From the IMG/VR virus record IMGVR_UViG_2711768071_000023: a stretch of 16,387 bases of DNA; one strand, written 5' to 3'. Source of the stretch: a virus. Taxonomy: Duplodnaviria; Heunggongvirae; Uroviricota; Caudoviricetes. Each line of letters starts with the position of its first letter. The first letter of the stretch is position 1. A program made the translations under genes and the position numbers. The notes below the pieces were generated by a model that was not told where the DNA came from, made no database searches, and worked only from the letters and a program-made list of their open reading frames with translations. Shown here piece by piece: positions 1 through 15,130 of the stretch.

Positions 1-1461
1 ATGAAAAAATTACTGCATCTTTTTTTCCCGCTCTCGCTGCGGGTACGTTTTCTGTTAGCAACGGCAGCAGTAGTATTGGTGCTTTCGCTTGCCTACGGAA
101 TGGTTGCGCTGATCGGTTATAGCGTCAGTTTCGATAAAACCACGTTTCGGCTGTTACGTGGCGAGAGCAATCTGTTCTATACCCTTGCGAAGTGGGAAAA
201 CAATAAGTTGCATGTCGAGTTACCCGAAAATATCGACAAGCAAAGCCCCACGATGACACTAATTTATGATGAGAACGGGCAGCTTTTATGGGCGCAACGT
301 GACGTGCCCTGGCTGATGAAGATGATCCAGCCTGACTGGCTGAAATCGAATGGTTTTCATGAAATTGAAGCGGATGTTAACGATACCAGCCTCTTGCTGA
401 GTGGAGATCATTCGATACAGCAACAGTTGCAGGAAGTGCGGGAAGATGATGACGACGCGGAGATGACCCACTCGGTGGCGGTAAACGTCTACCCGGCAAC
501 ATCGCGGATGCCAAAGTTAACCATTGTGGTGGTGGATACCATTCCGGTGGAGCTAAAAAGTTCCTATATGGTCTGGAGCTGGTTTATCTATGTGCTCTCA
601 GCCAATCTGCTGTTAGTGATCCCGCTGCTGTGGGTCGCCGCCTGGTGGAGTTTACGCCCCATCGAAGCCCTGGCAAAAGAAGTCCGCGAACTGGAAGAAC
701 ATAACCGTGAATTGCTCAATCCAGCCACAACGCGAGAACTGACCAGTCTGGTACGAAACCTGAACCGACTGTTAAAAAGTGAACGCGAACGTTACGACAA
801 ATATCGTACAACGCTCACCGACCTGACCCATAGTCTGAAAACGCCACTGGCGGTGCTGCAAAGTACGCTGCGTTCTCTGCGTAGTGAGAAGATGAGCGTC
901 AGTGATGCTGAGCCGGTAATGCTGGAGCAAATCAGCCGCATTTCACAGCAAATTGGCTACTACCTGCATCGTGCCAGTATGCGCGGCGGGACATTGCTTA
1001 GCCGCGAGCTGCATCCGGTCGCGCCACTGTTGGACAATCTCACCTCGGCGCTGAACAAAGTGTATCAACGCAAAGGGGTCAATATCTCTCTCGATATCTC
1101 GCCAGAAATCAGCTTTGTTGGTGAGCAGAACGATTTTGTCGAAGTGATGGGCAACGTGCTGGATAACGCCTGTAAATATTGCCTCGAGTTTGTCGAAATT
1201 TCTGCAAGGCAAACCGACGAGCATCTCTATATTGTGGTCGAGGATGATGGCCCCGGTATTCCATTAAGCAAGCGAGAGGTCATTTTCGACCGTGGTCAAC
1301 GGGTTGATACTTTACGCCCTGGGCAAGGTGTGGGGCTGGCGGTAGCCCGCGAAATCACCGAGCAATATGAGGGTAAAATCGTCGCCGGAGAGAGCATGCT
1401 GGGCGGTGCGCGGATGGAGGTGATTTTTGGTCGCCAGCATTCTGCGCCGAAAGATGAATAA
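1..1461 (+). CDS. phoQ: Sensor histidine kinase PhoQ (complete)
   Basis: 486-aa ORF, ATG at 1, TAA at 1459-1461. Translation shows an N-terminal TM segment, periplasmic sensor region, second TM, H-box ([13 protein letters not shown]) and HATPase motifs ([15 protein letters not shown]). Near-identical to enterobacterial PhoQ as I recall it. Confidence 0.95.
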
Positions 1462-1567: not shown

Positions 1568-1932
1568 GTTCGGTGCACTGTATGAAACAACGTGGAACAA
1601 ATAGACACAAGAAATATACAGGCGGGTCATCTTTCCAGGGGAAAGCACGCCAATTCATGAGGGGCGTTAATGTCGATATGGGGATCCCCATAACGGGGCT
1701 ACCTGGCTTTTTTTCCGGTTAAATGTCAATCAGGCTGGTGGGTTTTACATACCCTTGATCACCGTAATGATGATTCAGATCTGCACCTTTCCACCAATGG
1801 TGGAAAAGCCCACAGCAGGCCGCCCAGCCTCCCCCAATGGGGGATTGTGGAAGAATCAACGGGTTAGGCCTTAATCATCTGCGTAATCATAAGTAATCAT
1901 AATGTTCATTCATCCAGCGCAATTTTGCGTTA

Positions 1933-4385: not shown

Positions 4386-4673
4386 GTTCTTTTTTCGCCC
4401 AATTATTTTCAAAAAAATTCCCGTGCACAAAAATTTGAGGAGGCGGTCGGTGTCCGGCAGGGACGGTTTCGTCCTGAAAACCACCCCCACCCCCTCTGAC
4501 GGCCTCACCAGCGATTGCGAAAACATTCCATGACCTCGCGGTCACGGTCGGTTAATTGCTTCGCTGTGGTGCGTTCTGTGCGCCCTGTCCTGTTGGCTTT
4601 GTGCCCTGTCTCCTGTGTCTTCCATAAGTCACGCTGCCTTATCAGTCCACGTATCAGCCTGGTTTGCTCCTGT
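4386..4673. other. Candidate cos / terminase-recognition region between HNH and terS
   Basis: 288-bp gap in an otherwise overlapping operon. Contains a GC-rich run CCACCCCCACCCCC (4481-4494), short hairpin 4458-4476, and direct repeats TGTGCGCCCTGTC / TGTGCCCTGTC (4577-4589, 4600-4610). HNH-cos-terS is the usual arrangement in HK97-like cos phages. Confidence 0.35.
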
Positions 4674-7234: not shown

Positions 7235-8380
7235 TTACTTGCCAGCCTGAATTTCCAGAATCTTGATGGCGTTCGAATCCACCACACCACCGCCCAGATA
7301 TTTCTGGGTATAGATGTTAATGAATCCAGGCTCGCTGAAATCCGGACGGGTACGCGTACCGGTTTTATGGTCAACGATGAAATAACCGCGCTTAAAGTCA
7401 CCGACTGCAATCACACCGTCCGGCATAAATTCCAGATATTCAACCGGAAGCCCCAGCAGAGAATCAGGATCACCAGCCTGTAAACGATCGCGCCAGATGT
7501 AATCACCAGTGGCATTTTTCAGTTTTTGTGCGGAGGCGGCTGTATTTGAGTTCATCACCCATACAGCTTTTTTGCGGTACTTATTGCGCAGCGTAAATTT
7601 CAGGTCAATCAGCATATCGGCGCTGAGACTGCCAGTCACTTTTTTCGTCTGGAGCGTACCGAAAGGACGGGTTTTGTCATTATCCGTAGTGCGCGGGAAA
7701 GTCAGGAAACCTTTGGCTTTTTTCTCGCCATCACCGGAAACCAGATCCGTTTCTTCGGTATCAACGAAAGTGTCGCCAATTTCAGAAGATAACCAGCCCA
7801 TAATATCGACTTCGGAAAAATCGATAATTTCCTGAGTGGTTTTCGGGTAAGCGTAGATCGGATACAGGCGGATACTGACTTCATTCAGTTTTGGGGTTGC
7901 CGTCTGGTTACGTGCCGCACCTTCTTCGCCGTGTCCCACGACCGCACCCCCGGCAGAAACCAGTTGCTTAAATTCATTACTGTGAATGGTTTTAACAGTA
8001 CAGATTTTACGCATCACCGACTCATCAGAAAGCTGACGCATAATTTCTCTGTTCAGTTCCGGGATAACCGTATAACCACCATCAGCCGGGACACTGCCGG
8101 ACAGGTTGCGGGTTTCCCCGGTCAGAATGTAAGAGCGTAGTTCGTCTTTGGTGATTTTCTCTTCGACGGAAACACCTGGCTGGTTACGTTCTTCATCCGC
8201 AACAGCTTCAAGACGGGAGATTTCTGTGTCGAGGGAATCGGCTTTTGCACGCAGTTCATCAAACTGTTTGCCTTCGTCATCGTTCAGGCTGCGGTTTTCA
8301 CTGTCGGCTTTTTCCAGCAGGGATCGCATCTGGTTTTTCAGGGCGGTTTTTTGCTGGCGGAGTTCGATTAATTTCTTCAT
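7235..8380 (-). CDS. Major capsid protein, HK97 fold with N-terminal delta domain (381 aa)
   Basis: ATG at 8380. First ~100 residues are a coiled-coil-like scaffold segment (LRQQKTALKNQMRSLLEKA... LDTEISRLEAV) followed by an HK97-type capsid body. Confidence 0.9.
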   Translation of the reverse strand: MKKLIELRQQKTALKNQMRSLLEKADSENRSLNDDEGKQFDELRAKADSLDTEISRLEAVADEERNQPGVSVEEKITKDELRSYILTGETRNLSGSVPADGGYTVIPELNREIMRQLSDESVMRKICTVKTIHSNEFKQLVSAGGAVVGHGEEGAARNQTATPKLNEVSIRLYPIYAYPKTTQEIIDFSEVDIMGWLSSEIGDTFVDTEETDLVSGDGEKKAKGFLTFPRTTDNDKTRPFGTLQTKKVTGSLSADMLIDLKFTLRNKYRKKAVWVMNSNTAASAQKLKNATGDYIWRDRLQAGDPDSLLGLPVEYLEFMPDGVIAVGDFKRGYFIVDHKTGTRTRPDFSEPGFINIYTQKYLGGGVVDSNAIKILEIQAGK

Positions 8381-8573
8381 GAAGGTTTTCTCGTATTGGT
8401 TAAGATTCAGGACGTGAAACCAACACGGAGGGAGCGCCGCCCGACACTCTCGGCATCTCGCAGATCAACCCGGCATCGCGCAGGGGGTCAGGCGGCATTG
8501 TGGCGGCTCACGTCTGAGTGCCACACGCCAACATATACATAAAAATCAGTATGTAAACATCAGCCAGAATCAC

Positions 8574-8602
8574 CGAACAACCTGGAACAACCACGAACAA
8601 AT
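8574..8602 (-). promoter_or_regulatory. Three 10-bp-phased TTGTTC repeats upstream of the capsid operon
   Basis: Plus strand reads cGAACAAcc tgGAACAAcc acGAACAAat, i.e. TTGTTC x3 on the coding (minus) strand at exact 10-bp spacing. Sits just downstream of the 8615-8644 terminator and about 190 bp upstream of the capsid ATG. Confidence 0.45.
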
Positions 8603-8614
8603 AATTTACAAAAC

Positions 8615-8644
8615 CTGAAAAAAGGCCCGGAAAAAATCCGGGCC
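8615..8644 (-). terminator. Intrinsic terminator after the replication/accessory operon
   Basis: Perfect 8-bp stem GGCCCGGA / TCCGGGCC (8624-8631, 8637-8644) with a 5-nt loop, followed on the minus strand by TTTTTTC. Lies 10 bp past the stop of the 8654-8902 ORF. Confidence 0.7.
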
Positions 8645-8653
8645 TTTATCGCT

Positions 8654-8902
8654 TTATTGTTTCACTGGCTCCCGCATTCTGCGTCTTATTTTCCACAAAT
8701 ATTCGATCATCGCTTCCACCTGCTCACGGTTGGTTGCGAAAATTTCCCCGGTCAGTGAGCTACGCAGAAAATCATGATGATCCACAAAAAATAACGCATC
8801 GGAAGAAAGCAACCGACGATATTTTTTTGCTGTCGTGGTTTCCAGATCATCAAAACCATGAAGCTTTTTATGTTGCTGAACTTCTTCAAATGTCACTGGC
8901 AT
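8654..8902 (-). CDS. Hypothetical protein (82 aa)
   Basis: ATG at 8902 with strong SD AAGGGGGAT. Overlaps the stop of the ProQ/FinO-like gene by 10 nt. No family recognised. Confidence 0.5.
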   Translation of the reverse strand: MPVTFEEVQQHKKLHGFDDLETTTAKKYRRLLSSDALFFVDHHDFLRSSLTGEIFATNREQVEAMIEYLWKIRRRMREPVKQ

Positions 8903-9423
8903 GTATCCCCCTTTGCTGCCCGGCGCTGGCGCTTGTGCTTCTCATTCAGCACCATCAGCCGTGTTTCTGCCTCCTGCTGTTCCTGTGGTGTCACTTCCCC
9001 ACATGGCTGGCCTTTCAGATCGTAACGTGCGCCACCAGCTATCAGGGCGCGGTAATAGCGCGGAGACTGCGCATAGGATGCCAGCGTCGCACGTAATACC
9101 CCCGGCCCGAATGCCAGCCCCCTGACGGCGATATCCTGCATCAGGTCGTCGAATATCCCCACCTTAAGCGGCTTCGGTGCTTTATGGCTGAATAAGTCAG
9201 GCCACATCTCAGTGAGGCGGTTAACGCGTCGGCGGTTTTTGCGCTGCCTTTTGGTCATATGCTGCCACGGTGTCGCCCCTGTGGGCTTCTGCTGTGCGTT
9301 CTGATTGCCGGGTATCACTTTATGCGCCGATGTGGTTTTATCCTGCTCTTGCGCCGCCTGCGTCGTTTTCTGCGGCGTGCCGTAAATGCCTTTCGGCTTC
9401 CGGTTAATGGTCAGCGTTGTCAT
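8893..9423 (-). CDS. ProQ/FinO-domain RNA-binding protein (176 aa)
   Basis: C-terminal two-thirds aligns by eye with the ProQ N-terminal FinO-like domain (PLKVGIFDDL ... LRATLASYAQSPRYYRALIAGGARYDLKGQPCGEVT vs ProQ PLKIGIFQDL ... [35 protein letters not shown]). SD GGGGAAGG precedes the ATG at 9423. Confidence 0.8.
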   Translation of the reverse strand: MTTLTINRKPKGIYGTPQKTTQAAQEQDKTTSAHKVIPGNQNAQQKPTGATPWQHMTKRQRKNRRRVNRLTEMWPDLFSHKAPKPLKVGIFDDLMQDIAVRGLAFGPGVLRATLASYAQSPRYYRALIAGGARYDLKGQPCGEVTPQEQQEAETRLMVLNEKHKRQRRAAKGDTCQ

Positions 9424-9459
9424 GCCTTCCCCTGTAATTACTCTGTTCGCTGTTGTGAA

Positions 9460-9885
9460 TTAAAACGGTATGTTATCCCCGTACGGGTCATCGTGCTGGC
9501 TTGTCTGTTGTTTTGCCCTGTTCAGTGCGTCAGTGGCCTGGCCCTGTTGACCTTTTTTGCCGCCCGGTCGCGCCGTTCGCGCACTGATTACGCTGTCTGC
9601 AATAACCTGCCAGCCCTGCCGCGTTTCCCCGTTCTGGCCTGTCCACTGGCTCACCTGCATGTTACCCGCCACGCTCACCAGTTCGCCTTTGTGGTGTTTT
9701 GCCAGTGCGTCGGCCTGTCTGCCAAACGCCAGGACAGATAACCACATCGTCGCCGTTCCGTCATCTGCCTGGCTGCACGGCAGGGGAACCGCCATACTCG
9801 CCATCGCCATTTGTGTCCCTTTGCTGGTGGTCTTTAACTGCGGGTCAGCCACCAGCCGCCCGTAAGCCGCTATCTGTGCTGTCAT
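9460..9885 (-). CDS. ssb: Single-stranded DNA-binding protein (141 aa)
   Basis: OB-fold pattern comparable to bacterial SSB (GRLVADPQLK..., WLSVLAFGRQADALAKHHKGELVSVAGNMQVSQWTGQNGETR) and an acidic C-terminal tip ...DDPYGDNIPF resembling the SSB DDDIPF tail. ATGA overlap with the upstream ORF. Confidence 0.75.
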   Translation of the reverse strand: MTAQIAAYGRLVADPQLKTTSKGTQMAMASMAVPLPCSQADDGTATMWLSVLAFGRQADALAKHHKGELVSVAGNMQVSQWTGQNGETRQGWQVIADSVISARTARPGGKKGQQGQATDALNRAKQQTSQHDDPYGDNIPF

Positions 9886-10178: not shown

Positions 10179-10401
10179 CTGTTCACCTTTTGAGATTTTC
10201 CCTTTTTATTCATAATGTTAAGGGGTGAACAGTTTCACAAAAACTATTCACCAACTGTTCACCACTGTTCACCCTTAAAGCTCAATAAATAATCAAAAAG
10301 GTGAACAGTGAATAGTTTGGTGAACAGTTCACAAATAACTGTTCACCCTATAATGTACTGATATAAAAGATATTTATAACAGGGTGAACAGTGGTGAACA
10401 G
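10179..10401. repeat. Iteron cluster, candidate replication origin
   Basis: Nine perfect copies of GGTGAACAG in both orientations (GGTGAACAG at 10224, 10300, 10319, 10383, 10393; CTGTTCACC at 10179, 10255, 10265, 10339) plus degenerate copies, several pairs at 10-bp phasing. An AT-rich stretch (10350-10380) is embedded. Lies immediately 3' of the primase-helicase gene. Confidence 0.75.
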
Positions 10402-10414
10402 TTATTCCATAAGT

Positions 10415-12229
10415 TTAATTTTTGCTGTCGTCATTTGTGACCGATGCACATGATGGCATACAGTCTTCTGAATCCTCTGTCAGTGTCACATTTGAACGCA
10501 AACCGTGCTTCGTTTTCCGTTTTATATACTCCCTGCCATATTCCGCCATTGCCCCCGGCATATCTTTACCGAAGCGCGTCAGTGTTACAGGTTTACCGAA
10601 TCCGTGTGCCCTCATATATGCCAGATAGGCGTGATAAAGATACCTGCGCGGACTGAACGGAATAATTTCGGCATTACCCACTAACAGACCATCACACATT
10701 ACCGACGACATGAGATAGCCACAGAAGTCCACCAGCGAATCGCCCTCGCGTTTTATCACCAGAGCTTCTTCTGATTTCTGCTGCTCATACAGCAGGCGTT
10801 TAGCTTCGTCCTGGTCAGAAAAACGAGTAAGCAGATGGCGAATCACAACCGCCAGCTCTCCTTCTATTTTTTCTGCCAGCATGGGGTCGCGCTCGTTCTC
10901 CGGTACAACCTCCGAAAAATTGAATATCACCCGACGACGTGAGATCCCCCCGCTGCGGTCACTGAATGACATGGCGTTATTGTTCACCGCCAGCACGACC
11001 GCCTGAATGCGTGTTGAGTAGGGGGCTTTATGCTTCGGGTCGATTGCCACCTTGTCACCGCCTGTAATGGCCTTAATTCCTGCGCCATCACCAGCGTAGC
11101 GGGTCATATCCGGCATGATAATCAGCGAAAAGCCAACCACTAACGCGCGTTCCCTTGCATCTTCCAGCGCCTTCATGCTTGCCGATACTGTGTTGGCCTT
11201 ACCCGCCAGCATAGTGCAAATCTCCGCCATCACGCTTTTACCACTTCCCCCTGGACCTGTTACCTCAATGAATAACTGCCAGTCGTACCGGTTCGCCAGC
11301 ACCATGAATAATGCAGCCAGCACGCGATCCGTCTTGCGGTCATTCTCTGCCACCGAGCAGCGTAACCACTTCCAGAAATTCGGCGCATGTGTTGCCAGCG
11401 TTTCCCCCTCTGCTGGTGGGCTGAAAGGTAATTCACTGGCAATTAACAACCAGTCGTTTTTGTTATGCTCCCGAAAATTACCTGTTCTGGTATCAAATAC
11501 CCCGTTACTGAATCCAATCAGGTTACGGGCTGTATTCCCCATTACAGGCAAACTTAACTTCATGGTATCGACCGCCGATTTAATGGCGTTCTGCGAATAG
11601 CTGATCTCCGCATCAATGAAAATCTGCGCCATAGCACGCTGTAACTCTTTATCCTGAATCGGCTCCCATACAACGCCGTTGTAATGGTGAACAGTGTCAG
11701 AGTCGGCATGAATCGCCAGTTCACCGCCATAATGTGCCAGGAGAACTTCGCCGCGCTGGCTTGCTCCCATCTGGTTAAGCGCCAGTGGTGCGGCGCTGTC
11801 TTCTGTTTTTTTCTTAACAGGAAGCTGAATCACCAGACCATCAGAAAGATTCTGGCGCTCACGGGCCAGATATTCGCGCCAGTTCTGCACCTCCTGACCG
11901 TGCATACCCTCAGGATAAAAATTTGCATCCTGTACGCCTGCCGCCGCCAGCTTCTGACCAATCGCCTTTATCATTACTGGCGCAAGATATCCGGCCCTGA
12001 ATATGCGCACGGATTTTCTGCCTTCCGGCACAATTTGCAGCTTATCCAGTTCGGATAACTGCTGCTCCCCAAGCCACACAGGAGGCTCATTATCTCCGGC
12101 CATACGCGCGTCATGTTCCTGCCATTGTTTTGCGTGTGACCAGGCATCACTACCCGCAAAAATAATGACTTCTGTTTCTTTGTGTTTTATGCCGCGTGAC
12201 TGCTGTTTTACGTTCGGTGCCAGTTTCAT
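10415..12229 (-). CDS. Replication initiator primase-helicase, P4-alpha/D5-like (604 aa)
   Basis: Walker A motif GPGGSGKS and downstream helicase-like region in the C-terminal half. Strong SD AGGGGGT. Position next to the iteron origin matches a pri-rep gene. Confidence 0.85.
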   Translation of the reverse strand: MKLAPNVKQQSRGIKHKETEVIIFAGSDAWSHAKQWQEHDARMAGDNEPPVWLGEQQLSELDKLQIVPEGRKSVRIFRAGYLAPVMIKAIGQKLAAAGVQDANFYPEGMHGQEVQNWREYLARERQNLSDGLVIQLPVKKKTEDSAAPLALNQMGASQRGEVLLAHYGGELAIHADSDTVHHYNGVVWEPIQDKELQRAMAQIFIDAEISYSQNAIKSAVDTMKLSLPVMGNTARNLIGFSNGVFDTRTGNFREHNKNDWLLIASELPFSPPAEGETLATHAPNFWKWLRCSVAENDRKTDRVLAALFMVLANRYDWQLFIEVTGPGGSGKSVMAEICTMLAGKANTVSASMKALEDARERALVVGFSLIIMPDMTRYAGDGAGIKAITGGDKVAIDPKHKAPYSTRIQAVVLAVNNNAMSFSDRSGGISRRRVIFNFSEVVPENERDPMLAEKIEGELAVVIRHLLTRFSDQDEAKRLLYEQQKSEEALVIKREGDSLVDFCGYLMSSVMCDGLLVGNAEIIPFSPRRYLYHAYLAYMRAHGFGKPVTLTRFGKDMPGAMAEYGREYIKRKTKHGLRSNVTLTEDSEDCMPSCASVTNDDSKN

Positions 12230-12940: not shown

Positions 12941-13142
12941 GTCTCACCCCCTGAATATTCGCATTAATCATTCCGGCACGTTCTGCGAGTTCCTGTAATG
13001 ATTCCCTTGTTGCGACAATGGCTTCATCTGGCAGGTGGTAATTACACACCACGCGACCTTTATCCACATTGACCAGTAGCTGCCCGGTAAATTTCTCACG
13101 AAACTGAACGCGGTTAAGGTCGGTAAGTGACAGGTTAATCAT
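12933..13142 (-). CDS. Small protein, paralog A of a tandem pair (69 aa)
   Basis: SD AGGGGG. Paralogous to 12728-12940. 8-nt overlaps on both sides. Confidence 0.55.
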   Translation of the reverse strand: MINLSLTDLNRVQFREKFTGQLLVNVDKGRVVCNYHLPDEAIVATRESLQELAERAGMINANIQGVRHA

Positions 13143-13338
13143 GGTGTTCCCCCTGGCGAATACGGGCAGCGAATACCATCACGCAGCCATCAGGAGATTG
13201 CTGACGCGCTTCCTGTTCGCTGGTGGCCTCAATGGTAATCACGCGCGGTTGTGCCGTGCTCAGGGCGATAAAACGCCAGATGTATTTATTCAGGTTGTGC
13301 GAGTCCCGCCCTTGCGGGTGTGTGGTATGATTTCTCAT
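13135..13338 (-). CDS. Icd-like small protein (67 aa), first gene of the leftward early operon
   Basis: In-frame ATG at 13338 with SD GAGGT inside the 473-codon track ORF. Translation MRNHTTHPQGR...VITIEATSEQEARQQSPDGCVMVFAARIRQ resembles the Icd-like proteins of P4-type prophages as I recall them. Family assignment is from memory only. Confidence 0.5.
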   Translation of the reverse strand: MRNHTTHPQGRDSHNLNKYIWRFIALSTAQPRVITIEATSEQEARQQSPDGCVMVFAARIRQGEHHD

Positions 13339-13446
13339 AGCTACCTCGATACTCTCGTTATCGTTGGTGGTTAGAAGCCCCGTTACTGCTCCAACAGTGC
13401 GGGGCTTCGTCGTTTCAATTGCTGAATTGCATGTATCAGCACTTGT

Positions 13447-13500
13447 GGTATTCACATTACATTTAGGTGAATACCATTTCAAGTCTTTTTTGGTATTCAC
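13447..13500. promoter_or_regulatory. Operator-like repeats in the divergent control region
   Basis: Perfect inverted repeat GGTATTCAC-N11-GTGAATACC (13447-13475) plus a third direct copy TGGTATTCAC (13491-13500). Lies between the minus-strand Icd-like start (13338) and the plus-strand regulator start (13544). Confidence 0.5.
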
Positions 13501-13543
13501 TTTTGTATTACACTGCATCCCGTTATTAATGGGAGGTGCAAAC

Positions 13544-13849
13544 ATGTCCAGGAGTTCTGTTAACAATAAGTCACAGCAACTGAATGCCAGATTTCCACAT
13601 GAAGTAGTGAGTGGCATTGAGGCATCCCTACAGCCAGGGGAAACTAAAGCGAATTTTATAGTTACGGCTGTACGCGGTGAGATCGCCCGGCGCCAGGCAG
13701 AAGGAAGTGGAGAAAATCCCCTGGTTTCTTCGCTCGATGCACTGGCGCAGGTGGAAAAACTCGGAATCAAAGCCGCCGAGGAGATCGGGCAGCTCGTCAC
13801 TGTCGCACGTGAAGAACTCCAGCGCCGCAAGACCAAAGAACCAGAGTAA
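13544..13849 (+). CDS. Ribbon-helix-helix (Arc/MetJ-type) DNA-binding protein, candidate island repressor (101 aa)
   Basis: ATG at 13544 preceded by GGGAGGTG at 5-nt spacing. N-terminus QQLNARFPHEVVSGIEAS...ANFIVTAVRGEIARRQ fits the RHH beta-strand plus two-helix pattern. One of only two credible plus-strand genes inside the element. Confidence 0.6.
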   Translation: MSRSSVNNKSQQLNARFPHEVVSGIEASLQPGETKANFIVTAVRGEIARRQAEGSGENPLVSSLDALAQVEKLGIKAAEEIGQLVTVAREELQRRKTKEPE

Positions 13850-13906
13850 TCACCATCAGCGCCGTGGTGTAAGGTATTACGGCGCATTGCTATGCAGGAC
13901 AACACA

Positions 13907-14080
13907 ATGACCGATAAAGAATTGACCAAAACATTATCACCGGCACGGAAAAGACGGCGCAGAAAGATAGAGCATGAATCAGAAAGATTCGCGCCATGTG
14001 CTTTTGCCCTTGAGCAATTCCTTAAAGAGTACAGGGAAAAGCGCTCATTGCAGGTATGGCAACGAACTGAACCAGACTGA
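13907..14080 (+). CDS. Possible small basic protein (57 aa)
   Basis: ATG at 13907 (MTDKELTK...) in the same transcriptional direction as the RHH gene. Weak SD. No family recognised. Confidence 0.3.
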   Translation: MTDKELTKTLSPARKRRRRKIEHESERFAPCAFALEQFLKEYREKRSLQVWQRTEPD

Positions 14081-14256
14081 TTGCATTGCCCACCAGCCGC
14101 AAATGTGGCATTGTTGGCAATGCTCATGCGTTGGGGATAACGTGTAGCTTGTGTCGAGGGGCCACCGTAGCGGGTGGCCTTTGTTTTGCCCGTTATTCGG
14201 CAATTGTGGCGCTTCTCCACATGGTTGATATAATCCCACTGCTCAGATTCATTTTT

Positions 14257-14556
14257 TGCGCAGTAGGTTAATTGTTCACAAAGGCGCTCCGGCAACGGGG
14301 CGCTTTTTGTTTTTATTAGTTTGTAGAAACCTGACTCAGAGATAATGCTCATATTCTGATTGCCGTCAGGGGTGTAAGTTAAATTTACTCCCTTTTTATC
14401 ATCAAACATCTGCAACGCTCTGGCGTTAACAATATTGGTTTCACTCCCGCCAGTAAGGCCGGAAATAACCGGAATAATTTCGGCAAAATTTTGCAGATTC
14501 TGTTTTTCAGGACGAACGAAGCCCCGCCCTTGTTCGGGAGAATATCCAGTATTCAT
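14257..14556 (-). other. Possible coding segment: N-terminal ~100 codons of the 473-codon ORF, 3' end unresolved
   Basis: ATG at 14556, 52 bp downstream of alpA. Residues ~60-90 (TPDGNQNMSIISESGFYKLIKTKSAP) resemble the core of Bro-N-type domains. The frame has no stop until 13135 and runs antisense through the RHH gene and the 14284-14314 terminator. Confidence 0.3.
14284..14314 (+). terminator. Intrinsic terminator on the plus strand
   Basis: Stem GCGCTCCG / CGGGGCGC (14284-14291, 14296-14303; 7 Watson-Crick pairs plus 1 GU) with GCAA tetraloop, followed by TTTTTGTTTTT (14304-14314). Confidence 0.6.
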
Positions 14557-14608: not shown

Positions 14609-14797
14609 TTAGTGAACTGCCTCGCAGCTGTCCTTCCATGCCAGAACTTCGGATAAAGACCAGCCAACGGAACGACCGCCCAGCTTACGCCGTGATGGGA
14701 ATTGTCCGGCTTTTTCCAGGCGGTACCGACATGAGCGGCTCAGGCCTGTAAGTTGCTGACATTCTTTTTCACGTATAAAGCGATCTGTGCTTAACAC
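14609..14797 (-). CDS. alpA: AlpA-family transcriptional regulator (62 aa), GTG start
   Basis: Translation MLSTDRFIREKECQQLTGLSRSCRYRLEKAGQFPSRRKLGGRSVGWSLSEVLAWK matches the AlpA family HTH pattern. GTG start at 14797 preceded by AAGGGGGAA. Confidence 0.8.
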   Translation of the reverse strand: MLSTDRFIREKECQQLTGLSRSCRYRLEKAGQFPSRRKLGGRSVGWSLSEVLAWKDSCEAVH

Positions 14798-15070
14798 AAT
14801 TCCCCCTTTGTTGTTTCTTAAAGAGTCATTGGGTGGATTATTGGGTTGTGTCGGATTGTGTCAGGGTGTTTGTGGAATGGCAAACACTGGCGGCGGTCGT
14901 TTTACAGAAGCAGGGGGAATGAGAATAAAAACTCTTTTAATTCATTATGATGCAAAGGCATAAAATTTTACTTTTACGCCTTTTTTACATATTTTTAAGA
15001 GTGATTCGCCAGTGTATAAAAAAACAGTACACCTATAAAAATCAAATGGTTATTACGATGGCTGATTTTT

Positions 15071-15130
15071 AACCCGTTGTTCCATTTTGTTCCTTGTTGT
15101 TCGTCGTTGTGTCTCGTTGTTTCACGTTGT
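15071..15130. repeat. Six direct GTTGT repeats at exact 10-bp phasing between int and alpA
   Basis: Consecutive 10-mers aacccGTTGT tccatTTTGT tccttGTTGT tcgtcGTTGT gtctcGTTGT ttcacGTTGT. The same motif family recurs at 14846-14862, 8575-8600 and 1585-1600. Confidence 0.65.

Follow-up and report, generated by a model that had tools for sequence, protein, structure and literature searches.

A probable terminator-insulated capsid operon with a predicted activator-type promoter in a capsid-forming satellite island of Escherichia coli

Introduction

How does a phage satellite that builds its own capsids switch on its capsid genes? The question is raised by IMG/VR record IMGVR_UViG_2711768071_000023 (the window, meaning the whole stretch of DNA that was analysed, 16,387 nucleotides (nt)), which we identify from its gene content and mapped ends as a capsid-forming phage-inducible chromosomal island (cf-PICI) inserted beside phoQ in Escherichia coli. 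Such islands are widespread, build their own capsids and cross species boundaries. Their reproduction is driven by overexpression of alpA alone, which has been used for capsid purification (10.1101/2025.02.11.637232), and AlpA turns on its own promoter as well as downstream PICI genes, and it induces excision with no rise in int expression (PMC6092414). The PICI and cf-PICI literature that we searched holds no description of the capsid promoter, of the repeat arrays reported here or of the leader, nor of how the capsid operon is switched on.

Here we propose, with a probability of roughly 0.7, that the packaging genes form an operon insulated by a terminator and served by an activator-type promoter of its own, as judged from sequence comparison, and we weigh AlpA as the candidate activator. 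The comparative set comprises ~170 related loci from E. coli chromosomes, other genomes and two clades of viral contigs; a scan of genome contigs with a capsid alignment contributed 5 loci only, and two scans of viral contigs gave the diversity. Promoter and hairpin coordinates are read on the minus strand, the same strand as the genes (Table 1).

Results

A predicted promoter and four phased repeat units precede the capsid gene

The intergenic control region of the capsid gene extends from 8653 to 8381. A consensus scan of 7500-9500 returned one promoter-like site only, TTTACA-16-TATGTT, with 9 of 12 positions matching, and the positions of its hexamers lead us to infer a transcription start at 8522-8524 (~8523). 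All 52 distinct promoter regions, which carry 20 different spacers, have TATNNT at -11 to -6 from the hairpin that opens the predicted transcript (HP1, see below), and the -35 element reads TTTACA or TTTACC in E. coli types and TTTTTA in an AT-rich clade. Hexamers 16-18 base pairs (bp) apart and conserved in relatives are what a sigma-70 promoter would show, and the site may be read as one. Islands with unrelated flanks and a capsid protein of only 75% identity carry TTTACC-16-TATTCT, followed after 5 nt by a hairpin with the same GACG loop on a different stem. The supplements of one published EDL933 start-site data set contained no match to the promoter sequence strings.

Upstream of the -35 hexamer lie three exact copies of TTGTTC on the minus strand, at 8600, 8590 and 8580 (spanning 8600-8575), which a preliminary description of this DNA had already noted as phased repeats at 8575-8600, and a further unit, TTGTAA (8611-8606), which that description did not contain and which is in phase with the three at an 11-bp step. 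The window contains 2 arrays of at least three units (at most 1 mismatch, 9-11 bp spacing), where shuffles would lead one to expect 0.04. Of 128 distinct upstream regions, 96 contain the anchor sequence around unit 1, TTTGTAAAT, which is nearly unique per locus. Wherever anchor and hairpin occur together (72 distinct sequences), they are 88, 89 or 90 nt apart, although the intervening DNA is unrelated between clades. A 39-nt block containing all four units (TTTTGTAAATTATTTGTTCGTGGTTGTTCCAsGTTGTTC) is nearly unchanged among islands with unrelated flanks, and is alike whether it stands behind orf82, behind a PerC-family gene or behind divergent cargo. In the AT-rich clade, only the TGT core survives, in units 1, 3 and 4; a terminator hairpin fills the gap between unit 4 and the -35 element there, its T-run doubling as the -35 region. 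Because the spacing stays at 88-90 nt despite unrelated DNA between the conserved points, upstream activator sites would be expected here rather than a relic, and the position of the units, from -87 to -51, suggests that they activate rather than repress.

We considered the products of orf82 and of the PerC-family gene as late activators, by analogy with lambda Q or RinA, and rejected them: the two proteins are unrelated and neither is universal, yet the repeat block is identical behind either gene or behind a divergent one, and unrelated proteins could hardly read an identical site.

A predicted terminator separates the packaging genes from variable upstream cargo

Seven nt past the stop codon of orf82 (8656-8654) begins a hairpin whose core stem, GGCCCGGA/TCCGGGCC (8644-8637 and 8631-8624), has 8 GC-rich bp and a 5-nt loop and is followed by T6 at 8623-8618; AAA/UUU pairs lengthen the stem to 8647. 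The GC stem, short loop, U run and co-directional gene upstream are the features of an intrinsic (Rho-independent) terminator, as which the element is best read. Its fold has a predicted energy of -21.7 kcal/mol compared to -7.5 +/- 2.7 kcal/mol in shuffles (z = -5.2), with 0 of 200 shuffles as stable. A simple terminator scan missed the element at 8618-8647, a failure that we attribute to the A/U extension of the stem, which uses up part of the T run. Relatives have GGCCTGGA..TCCAGGTC, with compensatory changes, or AGCCGGAgcaaTCCGGCT at this position, and terminator stems differ among contexts with compensatory pairs, for example GGCCCGG/CCGGGCC versus GGCCTGG/CCAGGTC.

The DNA upstream of the repeat block is a variable cargo slot, occupied by orf82 (together with proQ), by a PerC-family gene or by a divergent gene, and is among the variable regions noted previously (10.1101/2025.02.11.637232). 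A hairpin with a T-run abuts the promoter region in 70 of 94 distinct contexts, 42 of them just upstream of the anchor and 28 between the units and the -35 element. A co-directional open reading frame (ORF) ends within 150 nt in 81 of the 94, and in 9 the upstream gene is divergent, starting 54-62 nt away; read-through therefore cannot feed the capsid operon in those nine. The preliminary description had claimed a strong terminator at 8615-8644 with an 8-bp GC stem and T6, and had viewed the head and terminase genes as a separately promoted, insulated unit. The terminator is present, with its coordinates adjusted to 8647-8618, and the fixed -10 element, the fixed spacing, the divergent genes and the conserved terminators argue for the insulated unit as well.

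The capsid transcript is predicted to start with a structured leader

Hairpin 1 (HP1) begins five bases past the -10 hexamer, at the predicted 5' end of the transcript. Of the hairpin described earlier at 8500-8524, with about 9 bp and a CGUC loop, the position and pairs stand, but the loop had been read on the plus strand and is GACG in the transcript. The 234-nt leader of the same description does not hold as a leader: 234 nt is the distance from terminator to ATG, an interval that comprises ~95 nt of promoter region and a predicted 5' untranslated region of ~143 nt.

Aligned across alleles, 98% of HP1 cells are paired and 4 of 9 pairs are changed on both sides, compared to 26-56% pairing in slid controls, with about two independent alleles only behind this comparison. 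A U.G pair in the L002 allele favours structure at the RNA level, and we regard the HP1 covariation as good, if not overwhelming, evidence for structure. The basal stem of HP2 co-varies as well (GGCCG/CGGCC, GACCG/CGGUC, GGUCG/CGACC with a U.G intermediate, and GCCGCC/GGCGGC), and for HP3, a UGGUUUCACGUC block is invariant in 15 diverse leaders. As a whole, the leader of the window (8381-8524) folds into three hairpins (z = -2.5), and two other leader types (L002 6784-6948 and L143 5895-6038) fold alike (z = -5.3 and -5.0).

UCACGUC (8417-8411), which lies in the apical loop of HP3, is the complement of the loop and 3' arm of HP1 (GACGUGA, 8514-8508). This long-range complementarity extends over 7 nt in the window, 8 bases in the AT-rich clade and 9 in the L002 type (CCAGGACGC/GCGUCCUGG), where the pairing target also forms the 5' arm of a hairpin-U7; this element stands directly before the AUG and buries the Shine-Dalgarno sequence. 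The arrangement suggests a switch acting on translation or attenuation, which we treat as a lead because the pairing columns hardly vary among relatives.

A scan of 8381-8660 against Rfam 15 gave no match at E <= 1, and a scan of the whole window gave only spurious microRNA-like hits on the iterons of the putative replication origin. A 32-codon ORF starting at 8497 was discarded as a leader peptide, its ATG being absent in relatives.

Repeats of the same type recur at the att arms and at alpA

When the island ends are set against the empty K-12 site, the crossover falls at about GGACATATTT (1460-1469) and overlaps the phoQ stop codon. Each att arm consists of a TTGTTC-type array, a spacer and a doublet of 12-mers; array A stands in the arm contained in the window, and the second arm, seen in L056 (1740-1820), repeats this layout and lies 22 nt ahead of the int ATG. 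TTGTTC-type arrays occur in both arms of L056, L035/L080, L048/L070 and the O157 island. The doublet tracks the integrase (Int) type, two copies of GGTGTAGTTAAT accompanying Int of 77-100% identity and two copies of TGTGTGGTCAGT the 65-73% types, including the EDL933-like O157 island; it is independent of the AlpA group, and the TTGTTC arrays are constant across Int types. Since the doublets match the "doubled motif" of PMC10111431 and the annotated attP arm repeats of P4, we identify them as the integrase arm-type sites.

Two further arrays, C1 and C2, lie near alpA in the window, of which C1 is kept, with mismatches, in islands with window-type AlpA, and the L048 type has an array like that of the capsid promoter also just upstream of the early operon. 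Recombination directionality factors (RDFs) recognise direct repeats at helical-turn spacing, and several of them regulate promoters as well (PMC7498355, PMC11963761). The arrays have the properties that RDF sites would have: they are direct repeats at helical-turn spacing, the same units are found at the att arms, and the element encodes a winged-helix protein of an RDF family. By analogy, the arrays beside the doublets sit where excisionase (RDF) sites normally lie. The best candidate for a protein that binds the arrays and activates the capsid promoter is thus AlpA, because the arrays recur at the att arms and at alpA, because AlpA belongs to an RDF family, and because alpA overexpression suffices for reproduction; on the sequence evidence we put this assignment at a little under even odds.

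Some islands carry other elements near int or alpA. In those with an Int of 77% identity (L011 1283-1318, also L035 and L080), a different phased array of four AATATC units with a period of 10 stands just after int, even though TTGTTC units are present in their att arm and their AlpA, as far as it aligns, agrees with that of other TTGTTC-arm islands. In the EDL933-type locus L003 (12712-12830), two GTGATATCAC palindromes 11 nt apart are followed by a hairpin-U7 that ends at the alpA ATG, a control layout unlike the phased arrays that precede alpA in the window.

Alternative explanations

Several observations weigh against AlpA as the binder, or against a need for any activator. The three TTGTTC copies before the capsid gene are unchanged in islands whose AlpA is only 48-66% identical (groups G2-G4), and the unit sequence does not co-vary with AlpA groups G1-G4, the arm-type doublets alone tracking a protein (Int); therefore, either binding specificity is shared among the groups or a protein other than AlpA binds. 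Clean TTGTTC arrays are missing from the att arms of islands with a 42%-identity Int and a G3 AlpA, the region upstream of EDL933-type alpA has palindromes in place of arrays, and the arrays upstream of alpA are oriented opposite relative to transcription. In the AT-rich clade, unit 2 often has CGT rather than TGT, and no similar TGT arrays were found elsewhere in those islands. With nine hexamer positions matching, the window promoter might also work without an activator. The constancy of the array across AlpA groups and Int types is what a host factor would produce, and the promoter and terminator could be real while the units are bound, perhaps for repression, by a host protein (a response regulator of OmpR/PhoB type, or Fis or a similar nucleoid protein) or by another conserved island protein such as the DUF4222 protein, which is present in 37 of 39 full islands. 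Fis recognises a 15-bp consensus, G-N13-C with an A/T-rich centre, which on direct reading GTAAATTATTTGTTC (8609-8595) fits, at positions kept in the AT-rich clade. We nevertheless consider a binder other than AlpA unlikely, if a serious contender, as the arrays stand in classical places for an element-encoded RDF (beside the Int arm-type sites of both att arms, and upstream of alpA), alpA overexpression alone is enough for reproduction, and no E. coli factor recognising TTGTTC with a 10-bp period is known to us.

The remaining alternatives concern the promoter, the repeats and the leader in turn. Expression of the packaging genes could come chiefly from the early operon, through read-through or antitermination, with the hexamers minor or non-functional. 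This would agree with the co-direction of all genes and with the hairpin-U7 directly before the capsid AUG of some relatives, which hints at attenuation-type control; the divergent upstream genes, the TATNNT at an invariant offset, the conservation of terminators by structure and the lack of any Q-like or N-like gene in Pfam and NCBIfam scans make this improbable. Still less probable is that the repeat block is a relic or an att-arm-like recombination junction at which the packaging module or cargo was captured, having no role in transcription. The conserved module does start exactly at the block, with the variable cargo slot upstream, and the unit type is that of the att arms, but the block has no 12-mer doublet or crossover core beside it and its spacing to the -10 element and hairpin is fixed across clades. 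Least probable, and to our minds very unlikely, is that hairpin and leader form a DNA signal (a cos or pac site, or a repressor operator) instead of an RNA structure. Its near-invariant sequence across distant hosts and the perfect GTGGC/GCCAC inverted repeat overlapping +1 would suit such a signal; the compensatory changes in the inner stem and the U.G pair of HP1, together with the covariation of HP2, speak for RNA. A cos or pac site in the leader is further disfavoured by the GC-rich gap between the HNH gene and terS, in which the ends of the packaged-genome record LR881103 place the likely cos site, if that record was opened at its physical ends.

Gene layout of the island

The island ends map to ~1460 and beyond 16387. 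We compared its genes with the published cf-PICI gene set (10.1101/2022.09.08.507074 and 10.1101/2025.02.11.637232): Pfam assignments, the annotation of a relative and the mapped ends give int, alpA and a primase/replication module, an HK97-type capsid gene, and genes for protease, portal, connector, HNH, TerS and TerL, with no tail or lysis genes and a size in the class of ~10-18 kb. Prohead protease, portal, connector, HNH, TerS and TerL (4045-2384) follow the capsid gene in the packaging operon, which reaches 2384. An island of E. coli E200086 that is 99.6% identical is annotated in RefSeq in agreement with our gene assignments, and 484 of 5426 complete E. coli genomes match at least part of 8300-8750, at 528 places in all. 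Neither Pfam nor NCBIfam has a family for orf82.

Table 1. Positions of predicted control elements, arrays and genes in the window
Feature	Position	Strand	Basis or remark
Unit 1/anchor TTTGTAAAT (core TTGTAA 8611-8606)	8604..8612	-	left edge of conserved packaging module
Units 2-4, TTGTTC x3, period 10 bp	8575..8600	-	centred near -73, -63 and -53 from predicted start
Putative intrinsic terminator AAAGGCCCGGA-uuuuu-UCCGGGCCUUU + T6	8618..8647	-	RNA fold
-35 hexamer TTTACA	8552..8557	-	promoter consensus scan
-10 hexamer TATGTT, 16-nt spacer	8530..8535	-	promoter consensus scan
HP1, 5'-terminal hairpin GUGGC-A-CUCA-GACG-UGAG-CC-GCCAC	8500..8524	-	9 pairs, 1x2 internal loop, -13.8 kcal/mol
HP2, long GC-rich stem-loop	8436..8496	-	RNA fold
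HP3, hairpin adjoining ribosome-binding region	8389..8429	-	RNA fold and direct reading
Array A, TTGTGT/TTGTTC/TTGTTT, period 10 bp	1585..1610	-	att arm at far end of island, 17 nt from doublet GGTGTAGTTAAT x2 (1544-1567)
Array C1, six GTTGTy units, period exactly 10 bp	15076..15130	+	between int stop codon and alpA
Array C2, three TGTGT/TGTTT units	14844..14874	+	47-77 nt upstream of alpA start codon
phoQ	1-1461	+	host gene; remaining window is island, with every gene on the minus strand
Integrase	16387-15158	-	
alpA, 62-amino-acid (aa) winged-helix protein, AlpA/Vis excisionase-regulator family	14609..14797	-	PF05930, E = 3e-18; PDB 8c3t "AlpA family phage regulatory protein"
D5-type primase	12229-10415	-	SSB gene next in gene order
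ProQ/FinO-domain RNA-chaperone homologue	8893-9423	-	PF04352, E = 1e-23
orf82, 82 aa, last gene of upstream replication/accessory unit	8654..8902	-	ORF list
Major capsid gene, HK97-type, first of packaging operon	7235..8380	-	Pfam

Just downstream of the primase gene, dense direct and inverted GGTGAACAG-type iterons (10194-10416) probably form the replication origin of the island. The 473-aa ORF at 13135-14556 has no Pfam family; its last ~45 residues match an Icd-like cell-division-inhibitor domain (NF033153, E = 2e-18), and its counterpart in related islands is split into several small genes. A GC-rich gap of 118 nt (4387-4504; GGGGGTGGGGGTGG...) runs from a small ORF after the HNH gene to terS. 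It is the likely cos site, because the ends of LR881103, a packaged cf-PICI genome deposited as a phage, fall there, on the assumption that these are the physical ends: the record starts 22 nt ahead of terS and runs out past the HNH gene and the small ORF. The non-coding stretch that separates the last island gene from the att arm contains a 43-nt direct repeat (1914-1956 and 2058-2100) with 79% identical copies 144 nt apart. Elsewhere in the comparative set, an EDL933-like cf-PICI of E. coli O157:H7 F8092B (L170 680-900) has sequence resembling the THI-box leader (ggggtgcccttctgcgtgaaggctgagaaatacccg) on one side and thiM on the other, past its far end, so that the insertion may part the riboswitch from its gene.

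Discussion

The layout of the control region suggests the following course of events. Transcription of the upstream replication and cargo genes would stop at the terminator (8647-8618), and a sigma-70 promoter ~95 nt past it would start the packaging mRNA at ~8523. The four TGT-core units, one per helical turn between about -87 and -51, would be where an activator docks and, in a class-I-like geometry, recruits RNA polymerase, and the leader hairpins probably set mRNA stability, access to the ribosome-binding site or both. If the activator is AlpA, one protein would couple excision, its own induction and capsid production. In the fullest version of this proposal, which we put forward tentatively and would not yet bet on, AlpA directly activates the capsid operon through the same phased TGT units that it would use at att and at its own promoter, the number and affinity of sites ordering excision, self-amplification and capsid synthesis, and pairing of the HP1 loop with the ribosome-binding hairpin of the conserved three-hairpin leader gates translation or attenuation.

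The promoter design is known from phages and, in the literature that we searched, was not described before for this satellite family. We offer a map of a terminator, a promoter, four putative activator units, a structured leader and a candidate regulator that would link excision to capsid synthesis. If true, it would explain the capsid yield from alpA overexpression alone and provide a compact inducible promoter for engineering cf-PICI particles.

Judged by its layout, the capsid control region appears to work in the manner of late promoters of phages or satellites that have activator sites upstream. It is neither of Ogr/Delta type nor of lambda Q type. Promoters dependent on P2 Ogr or P4 Delta contain a TGT-N12-ACA dyad centred near -55, whereas the units described here are direct repeats and not a dyad. 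The AlpA antiterminator of Pseudomonas, rejected as a model, has at least 142 residues, is 21Q-like and binds GGGACG between the -35 and -10 elements; its fold is unrelated, and it shares only its name with the 62-aa PF05930 protein. Lambda PR'-Q resembles the island in having a terminator-insulated late operon with a short structured leader, but Pfam and NCBIfam scans of the cf-PICI gave no Q-like gene, and examination of the window for a Q-type arrangement found neither a -10-like (TATAAT-like) pause element at 8524-8505, on direct reading, nor a U-run terminator in the leader. The operon I of Staphylococcus aureus pathogenicity islands (SaPIs) and the RinA-type late promoters of staphylococcal phages likewise give the packaging and morphogenesis genes a tightly regulated promoter of their own, apart from the replication genes (PMC6092414, citing Ubeda 2007; PMC3152322); they differ in being controlled by LexA repression and RinA activation and in lacking phased RDF-type repeats.

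Closest among known cases is, by analogy, the PLL promoter of P4, with the dual-purpose RDFs Apl of coliphage 186 and RdfS of ICEMlSym close behind. In the work on Apl and RdfS (PMC7498355, PMC11963761), one small winged helix-turn-helix protein acts on direct repeats at helical-turn spacing both at att and at promoters, as would AlpA; these proteins mostly repress or modestly activate int, whereas the cf-PICI arrays at -87 to -51 of a structural-gene promoter suggest activation.

The likeness to P4 has several parts. In both satellites, direct repeats with a 10-bp period precede a late promoter, P4 having three copies of GCTTTAAGTG upstream of vis, which we take to be the Cox-binding sites that activate PLL. 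P4 PLL is controlled by the excisionases Cox and Vis; a small winged-helix excisionase acting also at attP is the regulator, and the attP arms carry 12-nt doublets as in the island of the window. A search of P4 for TTGTTC itself gave an enrichment too weak to use (10 copies against 5.7 expected; two GAACAA upstream of vis), and the repeat unit differs, being of TTAAAG type in P4 and TTGTTC in the cf-PICI. The presumed activator of the cf-PICI is its own AlpA and not a helper protein, and its operon holds the full HK97-type head and terminase set that P4 lacks.

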